Below are positions 16,810 through 24,333 of a stretch of 31,021 nt of DNA, piece by piece. The DNA lies in NCBI GenBank assembly GCA_050331735.1, contig JBHJGN010000086.1, positions 1 through 31,021 on the forward strand, given 5' to 3'. Made by a program: the position numbers and the translations under genes. Every line of letters begins with the position of its first letter. Within the stretch, counting starts at the first letter, position 1. The notes below the pieces were generated by a model. The model did not search any database. It saw only the letters and a program-made list of their open reading frames with translations, and had not been told where the DNA came from. Source of the stretch: Cyanophyceae cyanobacterium. Lineage in GTDB: Bacteria > Cyanobacteriota > Cyanobacteriia > Cyanobacteriales > JBHJGN01.

Positions 16810-17895
16810 CTATTGACGGCGCCATAGCCAACGCACACCTCCGATTGCAACCGTCAGTAACCCCAAGAGTGAATTTGGTTCGGGAACAGCTTTCACCTCA
16901 GCAATGACGCTGACATTAGGTGCTTTAGCTTCTCCATCAAAAACTAATTCAAAAGCGTCGGCGTCATCTAGCACAGTAGCCCGCAGAAACAAAGCACTCC
17001 AGCGGGCAATTGTTTCAATGGCTTCATCCTGAGCCAAAGTAGGATTGCTAAAATCAGGGAGCGCACCAGGAGGATTATCAACGTTAGTAATACTGAAGTG
17101 ATTCGCACCATTAACACTAATTAATGCTTTGGGCGGATCTTGGATTAAATTAAACGTAGCCAAAGCTTCCTCCGGTGTGGCTACCCCATCTAGACTGCCC
17201 TGTACTAAAGCTATCGGAATCCCCTCATTGTTTGTCGGAATAAATTCCATTAAGAGGGGATCGAATCGATTGGTTCCGTAAAAAGCACCCGCCATGAGTG
17301 CCTCTGGACGACTAAAATCTCCCAAGCAGAAGGGGAAAATGCAGGAGCCTTCAATAGCGGTTAAACCCACTGCTCCTCCTTGAGAATGACCGAGTAAAGC
17401 TAGCTTATCAAGATCTACAATATCTGCTAGCGGTGAAGTAGAATTTTCGCTTTCCGTCAGCACAAAGTCATAGACTGCATTGATTTGCGAGGCTTCTGGA
17501 AGTAAACCATTAAAATCAAATTGGGGAAGCGATACCGTGTTGTTTGGCACAGCAACGATAAAGCCGTAGCTAGCAACTTGAGTTGCAAAATTAGAGTAGA
17601 AAGATTTATCTACTAATGCACCTGGTAGCAGAATAGCGGTGGGAAATGATTCATCGCTGGTAGCAGAGACACGGGGAAAATAGATGTCTGCCGGATTTCC
17701 ATCGGTTGGAATCGTAGTCGTAAAGCGGTTAACTTCAAAAGAAACATCGCTCAACGCAGCAGCAATGGTTGTTTCTGCAACGCCAAAACCCATAATAACG
17801 GACGCGAAGAGAAAGAATGGGCAATTTATGCTCGAAAAGCCTGCTGTTATCGCTTTATTGTTTGCTAATCTCATTTTCAAGAATTTAGAACTCAC
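16810..17895 (-). CDS. Chlorophyllase/cutinase-like alpha/beta hydrolase with PEP-CTERM sorting signal
   Basis: GHSQGG nucleophile elbow, GSLDGVA and GANHFSITN motifs; C-terminal VPEPNSLLGLL-hydrophobic-WRRQ. Start uncertain. Confidence 0.85.
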   Translation of the reverse strand: MSSKFLKMRLANNKAITAGFSSINCPFFLFASVIMGFGVAETTIAAALSDVSFEVNRFTTTIPTDGNPADIYFPRVSATSDESFPTAILLPGALVDKSFYSNFATQVASYGFIVAVPNNTVSLPQFDFNGLLPEASQINAVYDFVLTESENSTSPLADIVDLDKLALLGHSQGGAVGLTAIEGSCIFPFCLGDFSRPEALMAGAFYGTNRFDPLLMEFIPTNNEGIPIALVQGSLDGVATPEEALATFNLIQDPPKALISVNGANHFSITNVDNPPGALPDFSNPTLAQDEAIETIARWSALFLRATVLDDADAFELVFDGEAKAPNVSVIAEVKAVPEPNSLLGLLTVAIGGVRWLWRRQ

Positions 17896-18030: not shown

Positions 18031-19107
18031 TCATTGACATAACTGCTTCAAAGATGCTTCCATCACCGCCGTTGTCTGCCCAGATACCGAGAACACGAGC
18101 GCTTCTCGGTAAACACGCCCTGCGGCATGACAGCTAGCATTAGCGGCACCGCTAGACGCAATCACGGCAGCTTGAGTACAGCGTCCAGCTAGGTTAATTG
18201 CTCCAACGCGTAACCTCAGCCGCTGTTCAAAGGATGCTGTTTTGCTCAAAGCCTGAAACATTTGCTGACGGCAGCTTGCTAACTCATGACCCAAAGAGTC
18301 ATAGCACTGCTTAATAGTCCCCAGTCCTTTGGACTGATAAGTGCTTTCGAGGATATCTAGCGCCGCTTGAGCGCACCCAAGCGCAAAAAAACCCTGATTG
18401 AGGACATTTTGGCGATCGCTTGTATAAATTGCTGCTGCTGGTTTAACAGCAACAACCGCAGCATCGGGCAAGAACCAGCCTGCTAAGGTCGCCGATACAG
18501 TATTAGTAGCAGCCATCGCCATTAGCTCCATTGGCGCAGAAAATCGGATCGTGCCTCCATCGTGACTCTCCTGGAAGGGAATCAGGCCATAGACGGCTTC
18601 TCCATTCGGCAACTCAGCGCCAATGATAAAAGCGGTAAAATATCCCCAGCCACTAATCCAGGGAACCTTTCCCTCTAGGAGATATCCTCCCTCCGTCCGC
18701 TTCGCTTCAACAGGCGAACCACCGCGACGACGCAGGTGAGAAAACCCTACTCCCACTAACGGCTTCGCGCTCATTTGAGGAAGATACTGCTGTTTTAACT
18801 CCTCGTTAATCCCGTTAACCAACAAAGCACCAGCACTTTGATGCTGAGTCTGAAGGAAGGCTAGTGCCCCAGAATAGCGGGCCATCATCATTTGAAAAGC
18901 GCGAAAGCTGGTTTCGCTTAGTTCAGAACCGCCCCACCTTTGAGGAACCTTCAGCGCGAGAAGAGAGCGATCGCCCAATCCTTGCAGAGCCTTTTTCAAG
19001 GTTTCTGGCTTACGATCGAGCTGTGCTGCCTGCGGCGCTATTGTCTGTAAATAAGCTTCAGCCGCTTCCAAGAGCTTGTATTCATCCGTTTTTACTTGAC
19101 GTTGCAT
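18031..19107 (-). CDS. Acyl-CoA dehydrogenase-fold flavoprotein
   Basis: LKVPQRWGG, GYLLEGKVPWISG and RVYREALVF motifs. The ATG at 19107 (MQRQ) is preferred over the start at 19194. Confidence 0.82.
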   Translation of the reverse strand: MQRQVKTDEYKLLEAAEAYLQTIAPQAAQLDRKPETLKKALQGLGDRSLLALKVPQRWGGSELSETSFRAFQMMMARYSGALAFLQTQHQSAGALLVNGINEELKQQYLPQMSAKPLVGVGFSHLRRRGGSPVEAKRTEGGYLLEGKVPWISGWGYFTAFIIGAELPNGEAVYGLIPFQESHDGGTIRFSAPMELMAMAATNTVSATLAGWFLPDAAVVAVKPAAAIYTSDRQNVLNQGFFALGCAQAALDILESTYQSKGLGTIKQCYDSLGHELASCRQQMFQALSKTASFEQRLRLRVGAINLAGRCTQAAVIASSGAANASCHAAGRVYREALVFSVSGQTTAVMEASLKQLCQ

Positions 19108-19186
19108 CGATTTAGTTATTGCATGACCAATCAACAATGAACAGTGGTTAATGACCTGATCTGAGCATTGGCCTGTTGTGCCAAGA

Positions 19187-19666
19187 TTAAGCATTGGCAG
19201 AGAGGAACGGCAGACGTTGTGCTAGCGGATCTTTAATCGTTAGCTGCTGTTTTCTGGCCCAATACTCGCTCAAGAAATGAATTTGTCTGAGTCCGACTAC
19301 TAAATTAAGACCGGGCACAAAGATCCACCAAACCACCAGCGGTTCCGGTAATCCTGCTTGGCGGTACAGTTCGTTTACTGTCCGGTACAGGCGAAACTGC
19401 ACAATGTAGATCCATACAACTCCCAGCAGAGAAAACCAGCCAAACCAGCCACCAACGTCCGGGTCAAGCCTCCAAAGCAGTTGAGGAACGGCTACTCCTA
19501 ACACAAACGGAAGTAAACATAACGTCCCCGACCAACCAGTACCTCGGTAGCGGCGGAGTTCTTCTTGGATGATCCACTTGTACCAGCCGTAGTACAGCAT
19601 GGCCGTGGCAACAGAAAAGAGAATGACTTTCCAAAGGGGGCGGGGTTTACCAACAGGATTCAGCAT
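19187..19666 (-). CDS. DUF4234-like membrane protein
   Basis: RPLWKVILFSVATAMLYYGWYKWIIQEEL pattern and about 4 hydrophobic segments. Confidence 0.7.
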   Translation of the reverse strand: MLNPVGKPRPLWKVILFSVATAMLYYGWYKWIIQEELRRYRGTGWSGTLCLLPFVLGVAVPQLLWRLDPDVGGWFGWFSLLGVVWIYIVQFRLYRTVNELYRQAGLPEPLVVWWIFVPGLNLVVGLRQIHFLSEYWARKQQLTIKDPLAQRLPFLSANA

Positions 19667-19688
19667 TGCTCACATCGTCAAAGGAATA

Positions 19689-20147
19689 TCAAACGGCCAC
19701 AATAGAGACAGCGGCATCAAGCAAAACGTTCTGGGATTTAAAGGTGGCAATGAGCTGCTCAATCGCAGATGTACTGCCACTCAGCAGCAAAATTCGTTCT
19801 GGGGAGCCAGAGTCAATTCGATCTACCTGCACACCGTCGCGCTCAAATTCAATCGCTTCAGCGAGTCGAACAATCGCGATCGCCCGCACCTGTGATGAGG
19901 AATAGGGATGCACCGCAACTTGCTCGACCGACGCTAGCCTTTCCAAAGTCCGTAGCAGTAACTCTTGCTTGCGCTGAGTGGCCCGAAAGCAAAGCACAAA
20001 GCGCCCCGATTCTACTTCAACGAGAGTCCCGCCGCCGCCAAAAATCGTTTCTAACGAGACCCCCCGATGGGAAAACACCGCTGTTGCTGCCGTCAACACT
20101 CCCGCCCGGTCTTGAGATTTAATTGTAAACACCCAGCGCTGTTCCAT
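19689..20147 (-). CDS. ACT-domain protein resembling the acetolactate synthase regulatory subunit (IlvH/IlvN-like)
   Basis: FTIKSQDRAGVLTAATAVFSHRGVSLETI parallels the IlvH start (VLVENxxGVLxRxxGLFSRRGxNI). Second-domain RAIAIVRL parallels RELxLVKV; 152 aa; GAGAGGA ribosome binding site. Confidence 0.75.
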   Translation of the reverse strand: MEQRWVFTIKSQDRAGVLTAATAVFSHRGVSLETIFGGGGTLVEVESGRFVLCFRATQRKQELLLRTLERLASVEQVAVHPYSSSQVRAIAIVRLAEAIEFERDGVQVDRIDSGSPERILLLSGSTSAIEQLIATFKSQNVLLDAAVSIVAV

Positions 20148-20173
20148 GCCAGTCCTCTCCTAACCAGAAAATC

Positions 20174-21229
20174 TTACCGCTCTGTCCATTGCTGAAGCTT
20201 CAACTTAAGGCGATCACTCTGGCGCTTGAGAAGCCTTACTTCGTCCTCCCACAATTCTAAAGGAACCACCTGAGTCCAGCCAAACGGCGTGACCACAATT
20301 GGAACTCCAAAAGGTTCACGAAGGTCGTAAAATTCTCCGTCTAGCTTCACCTGTCCCGACACCACGATCTCTTGTCCTTCCATCAGATGACGGACTAAGT
20401 TGACAGTTACATTGGCAGTAGCGCTAATCGTTTTAGCCCCAGACATTTGAGTAACAAACGGTTTCAACACTACTCGTAAATCCGGAGGTAAACTATCAAC
20501 GTATCGATAGGCCTCCTGAATATTTTCGGCTTTCAAATAGTCAAACACCGTCTGTTTGACCTGACGGATCTCTTCCGGAAACTGGTCAATGCTGCGTCTT
20601 CGGACTTGCTCGATGGTCCTCGTTAACTCTTCGCTATCGAAGCCATAGATTCTGACGCTACTCCACAAAGGCACCATCCCTTCGCCGTGTTCGCCAACCA
20701 CAAACCCCTGAACAAGCTGCCGCCGTACGCCTAAATCTCTGGCAATCTCGCGTCGGAAGCGCAGGGAATCAGAGTAAGCCCCAATGCCAATCACGCGCTG
20801 TCTGCCTAAATAGCGGCTAAACACGTCTACGGCTAACTCGACCGGATTGGTGACAATCAAAATAATCTCTTGACCGTGACCGTAGTGTGCGATCGCGGCG
20901 GCGTAGCGGTGAAATAGCGGTAAGTTAGACGCTACTAGCTCGTCCCGCGATGTGGCTTTGCCGTCAGCAGAAAGCGTGGCTCCCGCACAGAACACAACGA
21001 TATCGCCAACGACTTCCTCTGGATGCAGTGCCACATCAAAGTGAGGAGCGACTTCTGCATAAGCATCTTCCAAGTCGCTCCTCAGTCCGTATAGGCTCCT
21101 CGCACTTTTCCCTTGCGCTCGGCCAACTAGCTGTAGACGTTCGGTCGGAGCCAGAACCCGAAAATCTAGGAGTTGAGAGACAATTTCTCGTCCGCAGTCT
21201 CCGCTAGCACCAACAACAGAAACATCCAT
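20174..21229 (-). CDS. Lactate/malate dehydrogenase superfamily protein with atypical specificity loop
   Basis: VVGASGDCG, CAGA...SRDEL..N, VTNPVE, DSLRFR and VVGEHGE motifs. Confidence 0.88.
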   Translation of the reverse strand: MDVSVVGASGDCGREIVSQLLDFRVLAPTERLQLVGRAQGKSARSLYGLRSDLEDAYAEVAPHFDVALHPEEVVGDIVVFCAGATLSADGKATSRDELVASNLPLFHRYAAAIAHYGHGQEIILIVTNPVELAVDVFSRYLGRQRVIGIGAYSDSLRFRREIARDLGVRRQLVQGFVVGEHGEGMVPLWSSVRIYGFDSEELTRTIEQVRRRSIDQFPEEIRQVKQTVFDYLKAENIQEAYRYVDSLPPDLRVVLKPFVTQMSGAKTISATANVTVNLVRHLMEGQEIVVSGQVKLDGEFYDLREPFGVPIVVTPFGWTQVVPLELWEDEVRLLKRQSDRLKLKLQQWTER

Positions 21230-21276
21230 TGCCCTCAGTCGGTGAATGTACTACCACTGCTACCTCAAAAAAGCTA

Positions 21277-21324
21277 TCCTCAACGTTTCGCCGCAGTTTC
21301 CTCCGGCGGCTGCGTTGAGCTAGC
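21277..21324 (-). terminator. Terminator- or attenuator-like hairpin upstream of the dehydrogenase
   Basis: Minus strand AGCTA-G-CTCAACG-CA-GCCGC...GCGGC-GAAA-CGTTGAG-GA-TAGCT ending in a run of six T. Confidence 0.6.
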
Positions 21325-21356
21325 TCAATCTTAACAGTCTCATTTTCTACCAGCAG

Positions 21357-21434
21357 TCAGTCACAATACAAAACGCTCGGCTGAGCACTGCACCAGAGCC
21401 AGGAGGAGCGAATGACAAGCACAATAGTCAGCAT
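21357..21434 (-). other. Candidate Ile/Leu/Val-rich leader peptide MLTIVLVIRSSWLWCSAQPSVLYCD
   Basis: Six of codons 2-8 encode L/I/V. It lies between the chrA stop and the hairpin; there is no strong ribosome binding site. Confidence 0.4.
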
Positions 21435-21451
21435 CCGGCGTTTGACTGCTG

Positions 21452-22660
21452 CTATAGCAGGCCCACCAGTAGTCCCAACACCGCTCCCATCGGTACTAAC
21501 TGCCAGGTTGGGGTTTTGTAACGCAGCAGAGCAATCAAAGCCACTAGAAAAATAGCCACCGCGCCGACAGACTGGAGCAGGCTTTCCTGAATCAAAGCCG
21601 TTTGCGCTAAAGGAATAGCAGCGGCGGCGATCGCTCCGAGGACAGCCGGGGTGACTCCCCGTAAAAACCCCTTGACCCACGGGTTCTGCCGAATCCTTAG
21701 CAGCAGAGGAGCCGCCAGCATAATAAAGGCAAAGGATGGGGTAAAAATGGCGATCGCCGACACCAGTGCACCTAACACCCCAGCAACCTTGTAGCCCACA
21801 AAGGCAGACGTGAGCACCACCGGACCTGGACTCAGTTGCCCAATCGCCACACCATTAATAAACTCACTGCGAGTCAGCCAGTTTAACTGTTCGACAATCT
21901 CAAACTCTAGCAGCGGAATAATCACCAGTCCACCGCCAAAGATAAAGCTGCCCACCTTGAGAAAAAACAGCGTTAGCGGCACCAAAAATTCTCGAATCCG
22001 CTCTACTCCCCAAAAGCTAGAGAGAGACAGAGTGCCAGTGGGAAGTTCTCCGAGCAACAGGGGAAGAGGGAGCAGCCATCCTGAAGTCGGAGAACGCTGA
22101 GGACCAAAGTAGACTAAGCCAATCAGGCCCGCAATGATGAACTGCGCCAGCACATTGACGCCAAACAGCAGCGTCACGGCCAAAACCGCCACGGTGATCG
22201 CTACCCCCACCCAATCTTTGATCGCCTTTTTGCCCAGCTTCCAGCAAAAGCCGAGAATAATCGCAATTACTACGGGAGAGATTCCCAAAAATAGAGCCTC
22301 TACCTGCGGCAGATCTTGAAAACGGAAATAGCCCCAGGAAAGCGCCAGCACAATCAAAAAAGCCGGACTGATAAAGCAAATTCCAGCTACCAAGGCTCCC
22401 CAAGGCCCGCCGTAAACGTAACCGGCATAGATTCCCATCTGAGTAGAAGCTGGACCCGGCAGCATTTCGCAAACGGCTAGCCCTTCGGTAAACTGCTCTT
22501 GGGTGAACCAGTTGCGTCGCACTACCGCCTCATTGTTGATCATGGCAATGTGGGCCTGGGGTCCGCCAAAGCCGATTACCCCCAGCTTCAGAAACAGTTG
22601 CGCTAGTTCCTGGAGTCGATGCGCTAATGGAGGATGGTCAGCGCCCGAGTGTTTCTGCAT
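21452..22660 (-). CDS. chrA: Chromate ion transporter (CHR family, long chain)
   Basis: FLKLGVIGFGGP, MLPGP, FLKVGSFIFGGG and QLSPGP motifs across two homologous halves. The ATG at 22660 is preferred. Confidence 0.9.
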   Translation of the reverse strand: MQKHSGADHPPLAHRLQELAQLFLKLGVIGFGGPQAHIAMINNEAVVRRNWFTQEQFTEGLAVCEMLPGPASTQMGIYAGYVYGGPWGALVAGICFISPAFLIVLALSWGYFRFQDLPQVEALFLGISPVVIAIILGFCWKLGKKAIKDWVGVAITVAVLAVTLLFGVNVLAQFIIAGLIGLVYFGPQRSPTSGWLLPLPLLLGELPTGTLSLSSFWGVERIREFLVPLTLFFLKVGSFIFGGGLVIIPLLEFEIVEQLNWLTRSEFINGVAIGQLSPGPVVLTSAFVGYKVAGVLGALVSAIAIFTPSFAFIMLAAPLLLRIRQNPWVKGFLRGVTPAVLGAIAAAAIPLAQTALIQESLLQSVGAVAIFLVALIALLRYKTPTWQLVPMGAVLGLLVGLL

Positions 22661-22800
22661 GGACTGCTCGCTCAAGCTTCTAGCAATATCAACTGTATTA
22701 TACTGGGGAAGAATTAAGTCCAGATTAACTAGCTCGACACATCTCAACCTGCGGTTTTTTGTCGAGCGCACGCGGTTTTAACTAGGCAGGATAGATTGGT

Positions 22801-24333
22801 ATGCGACGACGAAACGTGTTACTCGGAGCGGCTGCCCTCACGGGATTCGCCTTAACCCCTCTGCAATCGTGTCGGCGCTCAACCTCTCACCCGCAGTTCG
22901 CGGACTATCCCTTTAGCCTCGGCGTTGCTTCTGGCGAGCCCCGTCCCCATAGCGTGGTGCTGTGGACGCGCTTGGCTCCCAATCCCCTCGAACCCGTTAG
23001 CGTACCGTCAGTGGATATTCCGGTGCGGTGGCAGATGGCGGCTGACGAGCGCATGAGCCAAGTAGTGGCCAAGGGAGAAGCGATCGCCTCTCCTCAATTC
23101 GCTCATTCAGTTCACGTCCTCGCTGAAGGGCTAGAGCCGCAGCGCTGGTACTGGTATCAGTTTAAGGTGGGGAACGAACTCAGCCCGATTGGTCGCACTC
23201 GTACCGCCCCGGCTGCTAATGCCGCCGTGGAGCGCTTAGCGTTTGCCTTTGCTAACTGCCAAAATTGGCAGGCGGGTTACTACCCCGCCCACAGGCACCT
23301 CGCCCAGGAAGACCTCGATTTTGTGGTCTTTCTCGGAGACTATATCTATGAAGGAGGACCGCAAGGGGATGCACCCCGCCAGCACAACGGTTCGGAATGT
23401 GTTTCGTTAGCAGACTACCGCCGTCGCTACGCGTTGTATAAATCCGATCCCGATCTTCAGGCAGCCCATGCAGCGTTTCCCTGGATTGTGACCTGGGACG
23501 ACCACGAGGTAGACAGTAACTACGCTAATTTCCATCCAGAAGACCAACAGAGTCGGCAGGAGTTTCTCCGCCGCCGCGCCAACGCCTACCAAGCATACTA
23601 CGAACATATGCCGCTACGTCCCGTATCGGATTCGTTTGCAGAGTTGCGCCTCTATCGGCGCTTTTCCTTTGGCAATCTTGCCCAGCTTAACGTTCTCGAT
23701 ACTCGTCAGTACCGGACAGATCAACCCTGCGGTGATGGCCCCAAACCCCGCTGCCCAGAAGCGTTCGCTCCGACCGCAACGATGATGGGGGCTGAGCAGG
23801 AGCGCTGGCTGATGCAGGGAATAGCCGAATCTCCAGCGCAGTGGAACGCGATCGCTCAACAAACCATGATGGCTCAATTTGCCTTTGAAATTCTTTCCGG
23901 AGAGTCAGCCTTTAACCTCGATCAGTGGGATGGCTACGTAGCTGAGCGCGATCGCCTCTTGAAGTTTTTCGCTCAGCAGCCGGCTCGTCCGATTGTGATT
24001 ACTGGCGATATTCACTCTAGCTGGGTTAATCAGCTTAAAGCCGATTTTAATAATCCTCGTTCAGCAATCGTCGCCACGGAATTTGTCAGTCCGTCTGTTT
24101 CCTCTTTGTTTCCCGCTGAGTACGTTCCGATTGTCCGAGCATTCTTGGAAAACAATTCCCACATCAAATTCTTTGATGGCGGCTTCCACGGCTATGTTCG
24201 CGCTCACCTAGATCGACAGCGCTGGCAGAGCGATTACCGGGTCGTTACTAGCATCCTTGACCCCGATGCCGCTATGCAAACCTTGGTTTCCTTTGTTGTC
24301 GAAGATGGACAACCAGAGGTTCAGCAGCTCTAG
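22801..24333 (+). CDS. phoD: Alkaline phosphatase D family protein, Tat-exported
   Basis: MRRRNVL Tat signal; FSLGVASGEP, LGDYIYE, WDDHEV, LDTRQYR, DQWDGY and TGDIH motifs. Confidence 0.93.
   Translation: MRRRNVLLGAAALTGFALTPLQSCRRSTSHPQFADYPFSLGVASGEPRPHSVVLWTRLAPNPLEPVSVPSVDIPVRWQMAADERMSQVVAKGEAIASPQFAHSVHVLAEGLEPQRWYWYQFKVGNELSPIGRTRTAPAANAAVERLAFAFANCQNWQAGYYPAHRHLAQEDLDFVVFLGDYIYEGGPQGDAPRQHNGSECVSLADYRRRYALYKSDPDLQAAHAAFPWIVTWDDHEVDSNYANFHPEDQQSRQEFLRRRANAYQAYYEHMPLRPVSDSFAELRLYRRFSFGNLAQLNVLDTRQYRTDQPCGDGPKPRCPEAFAPTATMMGAEQERWLMQGIAESPAQWNAIAQQTMMAQFAFEILSGESAFNLDQWDGYVAERDRLLKFFAQQPARPIVITGDIHSSWVNQLKADFNNPRSAIVATEFVSPSVSSLFPAEYVPIVRAFLENNSHIKFFDGGFHGYVRAHLDRQRWQSDYRVVTSILDPDAAMQTLVSFVVEDGQPEVQQL

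Follow-up and report, generated by a model that had tools for sequence, protein, structure and literature searches.

Why should a gene for an enzyme of the lactate/malate dehydrogenase (LDH/MDH) superfamily be accompanied by one for a protein that resembles the regulatory small subunit of acetohydroxyacid synthase (AHAS)? The question is raised by a stretch of 31,021 nucleotides (nt) of cyanobacterial contig JBHJGN010000086.1 (GCA_050331735.1), to which we refer as the window. A region flagged beforehand within it (18031..21434) had been read in a first-pass annotation as a four-gene branched-chain 2-oxo/hydroxy-acid module, made up of an atypical LDH/MDH, an orphan IlvH-like ACT protein, a membrane protein, and an enzyme of the acyl-CoA dehydrogenase (ACAD) fold. 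Four head-to-tail minus-strand open reading frames (ORFs) are present as claimed, with gaps of 26, 22, and 79 nt by their coordinates (the last counted from a start at 19107). We find that the unit consists of two genes, the dehydrogenase and its ACT neighbor, and we suggest, with a probability of roughly 0.7, that they encode an L-2-hydroxyacid/2-oxoacid dehydrogenase of two components, probably NADP(H)-linked, in which a detachable ACT protein serves as the regulatory subunit. The pair is laid out in the window as follows.

Dehydrogenase gene: 20174-21229, minus strand; 351 amino acids (aa); divergent LDH/MDH superfamily (Ldh_1), L-2-hydroxyacid dehydrogenase type.
ACT partner gene: 19689-20147, minus strand; 152 aa; two-domain, IlvH-like; putative regulatory subunit.
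Spacer between the dehydrogenase and ACT genes: 20148..20173, minus strand; 26 nt; Shine-Dalgarno-like AGGAGAGG before the ATG; no terminator.

Linkage and coupling of the two genes

We scanned genomes, one per species, and recovered 57 dehydrogenase loci, mostly from thin filamentous cyanobacteria, with two from Armatimonadota and one from Vampirovibrionales. The ACT gene lies directly 3' of the dehydrogenase gene on the same strand in 55 of these (tblastn), and the two loci without a detected ACT gene stop at a contig edge. Clustering of all 1141 flanking ORFs left only two conserved families, the dehydrogenase in 57 loci and the ACT protein in 55; after these came shadow ORFs within the two genes, as seen from their coordinates, or generic response regulators (15 loci). 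The gene-neighborhood check proposed in the first-pass annotation thus upheld the synteny of the dehydrogenase and ACT genes and did not extend it to the other two: homologs of the membrane-protein and ACAD-like genes, and of the chrA gene on the other side, were found beside the pair in 0 of 57 genome loci by tblastn.

A metagenome scan with a nine-sequence alignment added 80 further loci (45%–72% identity). Here the ACT gene was called by profile hidden Markov models, and a locus was counted as lacking it only if at least 600 nt of downstream sequence was present. The ACT gene was found downstream in 51 loci and was missing from 17, with 12 uninformative (51/68 informative). Taken together, 106 of the 123 informative loci are linked, and they come from at least three phyla; among the loci are members of Cyanobacteriota, Armatimonadota, and Vampirovibrionales.

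The two genes are also coupled at the level of their reading frames. If the ACT gene is taken to begin at its nearest in-frame ATG, it overlaps the dehydrogenase stop in 43 of 54 loci (by 8 nt in 31 of them and by 4 nt in seven); the non-overlapping pairs are separated by 0–30 nt (seven loci) or 31–40 nt (four loci). Searching 1.84 billion cluster representatives without a profile gave 78 clusters at E ≤ 1e-30. Two of the representatives of these clusters carry the dehydrogenase, a linker, and a domain matching the partner-family profile in a single chain, namely P0133 (477 aa; hhalign probability 97.7%, E = 2.5e-12) and P0139 (444 aa; 94.8%, E = 5.4e-8). No larger fusions, of 616–2000 aa, turned up, which is weak evidence.

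The wider gene context differs between subclades. In one (L120, L121, L123, L127, and L132; 57%–60% identity), HyuA/HyuB hydantoinase/oxoprolinase genes share the strand of the dehydrogenase and lie ∼90 nt upstream of it, and none of the five loci has an ACT gene downstream (a 155-aa ORF in L132 is not an ACT protein). In a second, divergent subclade (L143-L148, L153, L156, and L157), genes for an aldo/keto reductase and a Beta_elim_lyase (threonine-aldolase-like) protein lie directly upstream on the same strand, and the ACT gene follows the dehydrogenase in six of eight loci; L156 has none within reach, and L144 ends too soon. These two contexts leave the substrate unfixed. The non-cyanobacterial loci L034, L065, L066, and L067 have no informative neighbor gene in common, their neighbors being a molybdopterin oxidoreductase, DUF2961, an ABC transporter, a ProRS-like tRNA synthetase, and PhoD.

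The ACT partner

By sequence score, the ACT partner is remote from annotated families. Its best Pfam scores (ACT, 21.6 bits; ACT_AHAS_ss, 17.8 bits) are both under the 27-bit gathering score, and it misses the AHAS small-subunit cutoffs (TIGR00119, 18.1 vs. 56.9 bits; NF008864, 23.4 vs. 119 bits). A profile of the partner family spans both domains of AHAS small subunits (6u9h, E = 6e-9; 2fgc, 1.5e-8; 2f1f, 4e-5), and the ACT part of the profile also matches the ACT domain of the mycobacterial homoserine dehydrogenase 6dzs (E = 2.8e-7). The structural model (predicted local distance difference test score [pLDDT] 89.6) has a β-α-β-β-α-β ACT domain and a second, C-terminal ferredoxin-like domain, the arrangement of AHAS small subunits, in which an N-terminal ACT domain precedes an ALS_ss_C-like C-terminal domain. 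Its top Foldseek matches are all AHAS small subunits, with query-normalized template modeling (TM) scores of 0.69–0.79 (0.78–0.79 for Escherichia coli IlvH, 2f1f). An atlas structure search likewise gives the AHAS small-subunit fold and turns up comparable, unnamed clusters from Actinomycetota, Planctomycetota, and Spirochaetota.

The invariant Gly of the β1-α1 loop is retained (G16), and the loop reads G-V-S-L where the aligned AHAS small subunits have G-F/Y-N-I; the effector of the ACT partner may therefore differ from that of AHAS. The partner does not adjoin AHAS genes, the gene upstream of it being the dehydrogenase in 55 of 57 genome loci. Since a separate canonical ilvH lies elsewhere in the genome (C23, 221 bits, against 17.6 bits for the ACT partner in the whole-genome search), the partner can be regarded as an "orphan" paralog that is free for another role, much as the first-pass annotation had it.

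The dehydrogenase

The dehydrogenase belongs to the LDH/MDH superfamily, with a Rossmann NAD(P)-binding domain followed by an Ldh_1 α/β C-terminal domain, and both of its Pfam scores (Ldh_1_N, 43 bits; Ldh_1_C, 44.6 bits) are above the gathering cutoffs. It misses every NCBIfam LDH/MDH cutoff, the best match being the MDH model NF004863 (128 vs. 283 bits); the scores on TIGR01763 (MDH) and TIGR01771 (LDH) are 78 versus 352 and 98 versus 304 bits, respectively. The earlier description of the enzyme as atypical was sound. Its AlphaFold model (pLDDT 91.2, predicted TM-score 0.91) is matched in Foldseek by at least 500 PDB LDH/MDH chains at E ≤ 0.001, and the nearest folds are methanogen MDHs with 24%–27% identity, followed by LDHs and MDHs generally. 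The best PDB sequence match is 8rwl (phmmer E = 1.6e-26), and the next is 1hye.

A search at E ≤ 0.001 yielded 1116 related proteins. The best 120 of these are 62%–100% identical, are 347–396 aa long, and are labeled "malate dehydrogenase," "L-lactate dehydrogenase 2," or "hypothetical." Five family members (P0164, P0170, P0184, P0196, and P0230) have extensions of 50–100 residues ahead of the Rossmann motif, which could be targeting peptides or mis-called starts.

The numbering and roles of the catalytic residues of LDH/MDH enzymes are well established. In a profile-profile alignment to nine canonical cyanobacterial LDH/MDH sequences, R95, N128, D154, R157, and H181 of the dehydrogenase, which are invariant among 33 family members, correspond to Arg109, Asn140, Asp168, Arg171, and His195, and T267 corresponds to Thr246. 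R95, R157, and H181 are also invariant in 39 cluster representatives that are 32%–49% identical to the window protein. At the equivalent of position 102, the window protein has Leu and its relatives have Val, Ile, Met, or Thr, neither the Arg of MDHs nor the Gln of LDHs. With this residue and the scores given above, the enzyme is neither a canonical MDH (Arg102, score over the NCBIfam MDH cutoffs) nor a canonical L-LDH (Gln102, score over the LDH cutoffs). One study names Gln102 as the critical LDH residue (PMC10583557). The family further has a 28-residue insertion (residues 235–262) just before the S-G-A-K-T motif, and R252 inside it is nearly invariant even among the 39 representatives.

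NAD specificity in LDH/MDH enzymes is set by an Asp at the end of strand β2. The invariant Gly36-Arg37 of the dehydrogenase aligns to this residue, which is invariant in the nine canonical cyanobacterial sequences, and the acidic Asp53 that marks NAD-specific enzymes is accordingly missing. The replacement of the canonical Asp by Gly36-Arg37 suggests NADP(H), and three of the nearest solved relatives (9sd3, 9sa7, and 9sc9) are described in their PDB entries as NADP(+)- or NAD(P)(+)-dependent. A quick maximum-likelihood tree, built from 81 of 153 rows once sequences at least 88% identical had been removed, splits the family from canonical cyanobacterial LDH/MDH with a Shimodaira–Hasegawa-like approximate likelihood ratio test (SH-aLRT) support of 99. 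Judged from its sequence, the dehydrogenase is a catalytically intact-looking member of a deep, uncharacterized LDH/MDH-superfamily clade.

A putative two-component enzyme

The present data show the gene order, coupling, fusions, folds, and retained catalytic residues; the binding, the allostery, and the NADP(H) preference of the proposed enzyme are inferred. The dehydrogenase would catalyze the reversible conversion of an L-2-hydroxy acid to the corresponding 2-oxo acid, probably via NADP(H) rather than NAD(H). The ACT partner would bind it as a detachable regulatory subunit and make its activity depend on a small-molecule effector, for which an amino acid is plausible. IlvH regulates AHAS likewise, and fused ACT domains regulate SerA and homoserine dehydrogenase.

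Several points count against this proposal. The fused proteins P0133 and P0139 are unannotated database protein predictions and carry the first ACT domain only. The ACT gene is missing from 17 of 68 informative metagenome loci, which are confined to a few subclades of the tree, and it is missing downstream of one further, distant family member (40% identical; G342:C4 5181-6266), which came from a phylum-wide sample of 400 genomes. Since such ACT-less loci exist, the dehydrogenase can work alone. Ligand binding by the ACT partner is assumed from its fold, because its scores are under the Pfam and NCBIfam cutoffs, and the probable preference for NADP(H) draws on one alignment column and on general rules for the superfamily. 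A look for RNA data over 19600-21300 of the window found none. A prediction of a 1:1 complex of the dehydrogenase and the ACT protein, run with two alignments, scored 0.01 against a mark of 0.32; we take this as no answer and use it neither way.

The distant solo copy (L087) sits in a 2.4-Mb genome, the size of that of a picocyanobacterium, with 669-aa and 108-aa ORFs upstream, and it has His at the position aligned to K266.

A broader version of the two-component reading is that of a heteromeric LDH/MDH class, in which an NADP(H)-linked L-2-hydroxyacid dehydrogenase has acquired an AHAS-subunit paralog as a detachable amino-acid sensor and has spread horizontally among Cyanobacteriota, Vampirovibrionales, Armatimonadota, and other phyla, occasionally as a fusion. 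The amino-acid supply of the cell would in that case gate the reduction or oxidation of 2-oxoacids. We offer this version tentatively, at a little under even odds. Full-text literature searches, which do not extend to subscription-only papers, returned no account of an ACT subunit in an LDH/MDH-type enzyme, and the pair appears to be undescribed, in line with the first-pass annotation.

Neighboring genes and the upstream region

The remaining features of the region are as follows.

Membrane protein gene: 19187-19666, minus strand; 159 aa; DUF4234-like.
ACAD-fold gene: 18031-19194, minus strand; 387 aa as listed.
5' intergenic region, from chrA to the dehydrogenase gene: 21230..21451, minus strand; 222 nt; promoter presumed.
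chrA, chromate transporter: 21452-22771, minus strand; ChrA 298 bits; upstream of the dehydrogenase gene.

The membrane protein has no Pfam or NCBIfam match, and a protein atlas groups it with cyanobacterial clusters of DUF4234-like proteins (0.97). The ACAD-fold protein matches a single Pfam family, Acyl-CoA_dh_N (43.9 bits), with distant ACAD matches in the PDB (E = 9e-12) and weak SfnB, AcrC, and HsaA-like matches in NCBIfam (18–30 bits); its start is probably the ATG at 19107, because relatives align only from residue ∼30–40. Among 40 relatives from the same order, 22 carry the ACAD-like gene (40%–65% identity), and a membrane, ACT, or LDH-like gene stands beside it in none of the 14 loci examined. 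Synteny is kept for the dehydrogenase and ACT genes only, and the module therefore has two genes, not four: one half of the earlier proposal is a conserved unit, and the membrane and ACAD genes are chance, local neighbors of it.

The 222-nt upstream region had been read as holding an Ile/Leu/Val-rich short ORF and a hairpin with a T-run. It does contain a short ORF (21434-21357, minus strand) of 25 codons, nine of them Ile/Leu/Val and six of those within the first eight, and one weak terminator-like hairpin lies inside this ORF (21389-21372). A GAGGG Shine-Dalgarno-like motif stands ahead of the dehydrogenase ATG, and no sigma-70 consensus site was found in 21230..21451. Terminator-like sites in the region number nine against 4.5 ± 1.9 in shuffles, and its folding is unexceptional (z = −1.49, with 21 of 200 shuffles folding at least as well). 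There was no Rfam family match at E ≤ 1. Among the 57 related loci, none gave a blastn match to the region below E = 1.2, and none showed a recurrent Ile/Leu/Val-rich upstream ORF. The conserved ORF, alternative hairpins, and terminator of a leader-peptide attenuator were thus not found upstream of the dehydrogenase; we treat the short ORF and its hairpin as products of chance outside the unit, and the leader hint falls with them.

Four other loci (L030, L040, L043, and L068) share a similar basic ORF of 18–20 codons within 250 nt upstream of the dehydrogenase, beginning M-K/R-A-F-Q-K-R-D-R-R-F-G-K-V, which has no counterpart in the window. Farther out in the window, 16810-17895 (minus strand) encodes an alpha/beta hydrolase that bears a PEP-CTERM sorting motif at its C terminus and has PETase-like (43 bits) and chlorophyllase-like (38 bits) Pfam matches. 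On the opposite strand, the ORF 22801-24333 (plus) has a distant relative in L034 (25% identity) that bears Pfam PhoD domains; the position of that relative near the pair in L034 is probably a coincidence.

Alternative explanations

The best surviving alternative is a specific version of the two-component enzyme, in which the pair is a regulated, probably NADP-dependent MDH isozyme that stands in for the canonical MDH, with the ACT subunit following amino-acid status and tuning oxaloacetate/malate flux. Its support is mixed. The nearest solved structures, by sequence and by fold, are archaeal MDHs, and R252 in the insertion could replace Arg102. The genome of the window, which is 99.98% complete, has only two Ldh_1 genes, the dehydrogenase and an LDH-type paralog with an N-terminal extension that lies outside the window (C9:48557-49612, plus strand); tblastn found no canonical TIGR01763-type MDH in it. 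In a sample of 81 genomes from one cyanobacterial order, around locus L068, 22 carry the dehydrogenase family, and a TIGR01763 MDH scores above the cutoff in two of these 22 pair-bearing genomes versus 37 of the 59 pair-less ones (Fisher p = 1.2e-5, with genomes treated as independent though related).

Set against this are the replacement of Arg102 by Val, Leu, Ile, Met, or Thr and the scores on all NCBIfam MDH models, which are far under the cutoffs. Moreover, a canonical MDH scores above the cutoff in 11 of 12 pair-bearing genomes outside the 81-genome sample, including those of Armatimonadota and Vampirovibrionales, and the anticorrelation may therefore be the effect of a single clade. Among 15 pair-bearing genomes tested individually, 11 have a canonical MDH (2/5, 5/5, and 4/5 by group), and the three MDH-less genomes of the 2/5 group belong to the same order sample. 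A simple replacement of MDH as a general rule was rejected on these 11 of 15 genomes. Given such mixed evidence, we see the regulated MDH isozyme as a live but minority reading.

Somewhat less probable is the specificity put forward in the first-pass annotation, under which the pair would be a reductase of branched-chain or related keto acids (2-oxoisovalerate, 2-oxoisocaproate, or 2-oxobutyrate) gated by Val/Leu/Ile via the IlvH-like subunit. The closest known relatives of the ACT partner are indeed valine-sensing AHAS small subunits, and the residue at the 102-equivalent specificity position is hydrophobic; in LDH engineering, such a residue reportedly favors larger hydrophobic substrates. 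The divergent subclade (eight loci) with Beta_elim_lyase and aldo/keto reductase genes just upstream also points this way. However, the Ile/Leu/Val-rich leader is unconserved, the ACAD gene is unlinked to the pair, and the flanks show no recurring ilv, leu, or bkd gene. The partner misses the AHAS small-subunit cutoffs, its ACT loop differs from theirs (G-V-S-L vs. G-F/Y-N-I), and a hydroxyisocaproate dehydrogenase is named in none of the best 60 of 133 PDB sequence matches. Three of the four original supports (leader, hairpin, and ACAD gene) have been lost; what speaks for a branched-chain theme now is the IlvH resemblance and the hydrophobic residue at 102, and on these sequence features the theme is possible but unsupported.

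It is improbable that the adjacency is functionless, or that the ACT protein serves another enzyme (e.g., AHAS) and is merely cotranscribed with the dehydrogenase. The 17 metagenome loci without an ACT gene would fit such a reading, but linkage in 106 of 123 informative loci in at least three phyla, the start/stop codon overlap in 43 of 54 loci, the two fused forms, and the canonical ilvH already in the genome all speak against it. Finally, a four-gene module (dehydrogenase, ACT, membrane, and ACAD genes) under a leader-peptide attenuator, which is suggested by co-orientation and short gaps in this window only, is very hard to credit with membrane and ACAD homologs beside the pair in 0 of 57 loci, no membrane, ACT, or LDH-like genes at the 14 ACAD-like loci of relatives, and a leader and hairpin not above chance.

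Implications

Textbooks use the LDH/MDH superfamily as a model of how substrate specificity and allostery evolve. If the pair is a two-component enzyme as proposed, the superfamily would gain a new regulatory architecture, a separate AHAS-type ACT subunit, and the IlvH fold would have been reused outside thiamine diphosphate (ThDP) enzymes. More than 100 database proteins labeled "malate dehydrogenase," "L-lactate dehydrogenase 2," or "hypothetical" are probably mis-named. The dehydrogenase is also the only MDH-like candidate in some cyanobacteria, including the genome of the window, which bears on models of the tricarboxylic acid cycle branch.

Comparison with known systems

Regulation as such has precedents within the superfamily. 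Allosteric L-LDHs (e.g., that of Cyanobacterium aponinum, 8ab2/8ab3) are regulated members of the same superfamily as the dehydrogenase, and the LDH-type paralog in the genome of the window is such a protein, 33% identical to the dehydrogenase over one 124-residue stretch. In the available part of the source, allostery in the superfamily is described as homotropic or as acting via fructose-1,6-bisphosphate, in either case within the homotetramer, and that part describes no separate regulatory subunit for LDH/MDH (PMC10583557).

The best sequence and fold matches of the dehydrogenase are the archaeal [LDH-like] MDHs of Methanopyrus kandleri (8rwl/9end) and Methanocaldococcus jannaschii (MJ0490, 1hye/1hyg), with Foldseek TM-scores of 0.74–0.77 by query length and 0.82–0.86 by target length. 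With the dehydrogenase they share the catalytic Arg/Asp/Arg/His, an N-terminal GxxGxxG, and a β2 strand that ends in a residue other than Asp, with Arg next. Unlike the archaeal enzymes, to which it is 24%–27% identical, the cyanobacterial family has a hydrophobic residue for Arg102 and a mobile loop extended by one to three residues; ahead of its G-x-T substrate motif it carries a helical insertion of 28 residues, and it comes with an ACT partner gene of its own.

SerA (D-3-phosphoglycerate dehydrogenase) and homoserine dehydrogenase resemble the proposed enzyme in joining an NAD(P)-dependent dehydrogenase to an ACT module, and in P0133 and P0139 the module is fused as it is in them. These enzymes have other folds (those of D-2-hydroxyacid dehydrogenase and homoserine dehydrogenase) and carry the ACT domain in cis, whereas the ACT module described here usually forms its own polypeptide, extended by a further C-terminal domain, and the catalytic protein has the LDH/MDH fold.

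The organization of the pair is most readily compared with that of the AHAS holoenzyme (IlvB/IlvI with IlvH/IlvN). The differences are plain: the small subunit is paired with a dehydrogenase of the LDH/MDH fold instead of a ThDP enzyme, and it scores 18–23 bits on models with cutoffs of 57–119. The likeness lies in the two-domain small-subunit fold of the ACT partner and in the position of its gene, immediately downstream of the presumed catalytic gene and translationally coupled to it. If the ACT partner does regulate the dehydrogenase, the analogy would extend to function, with a small ACT subunit activating or feedback-regulating a catalytic subunit as in AHAS.

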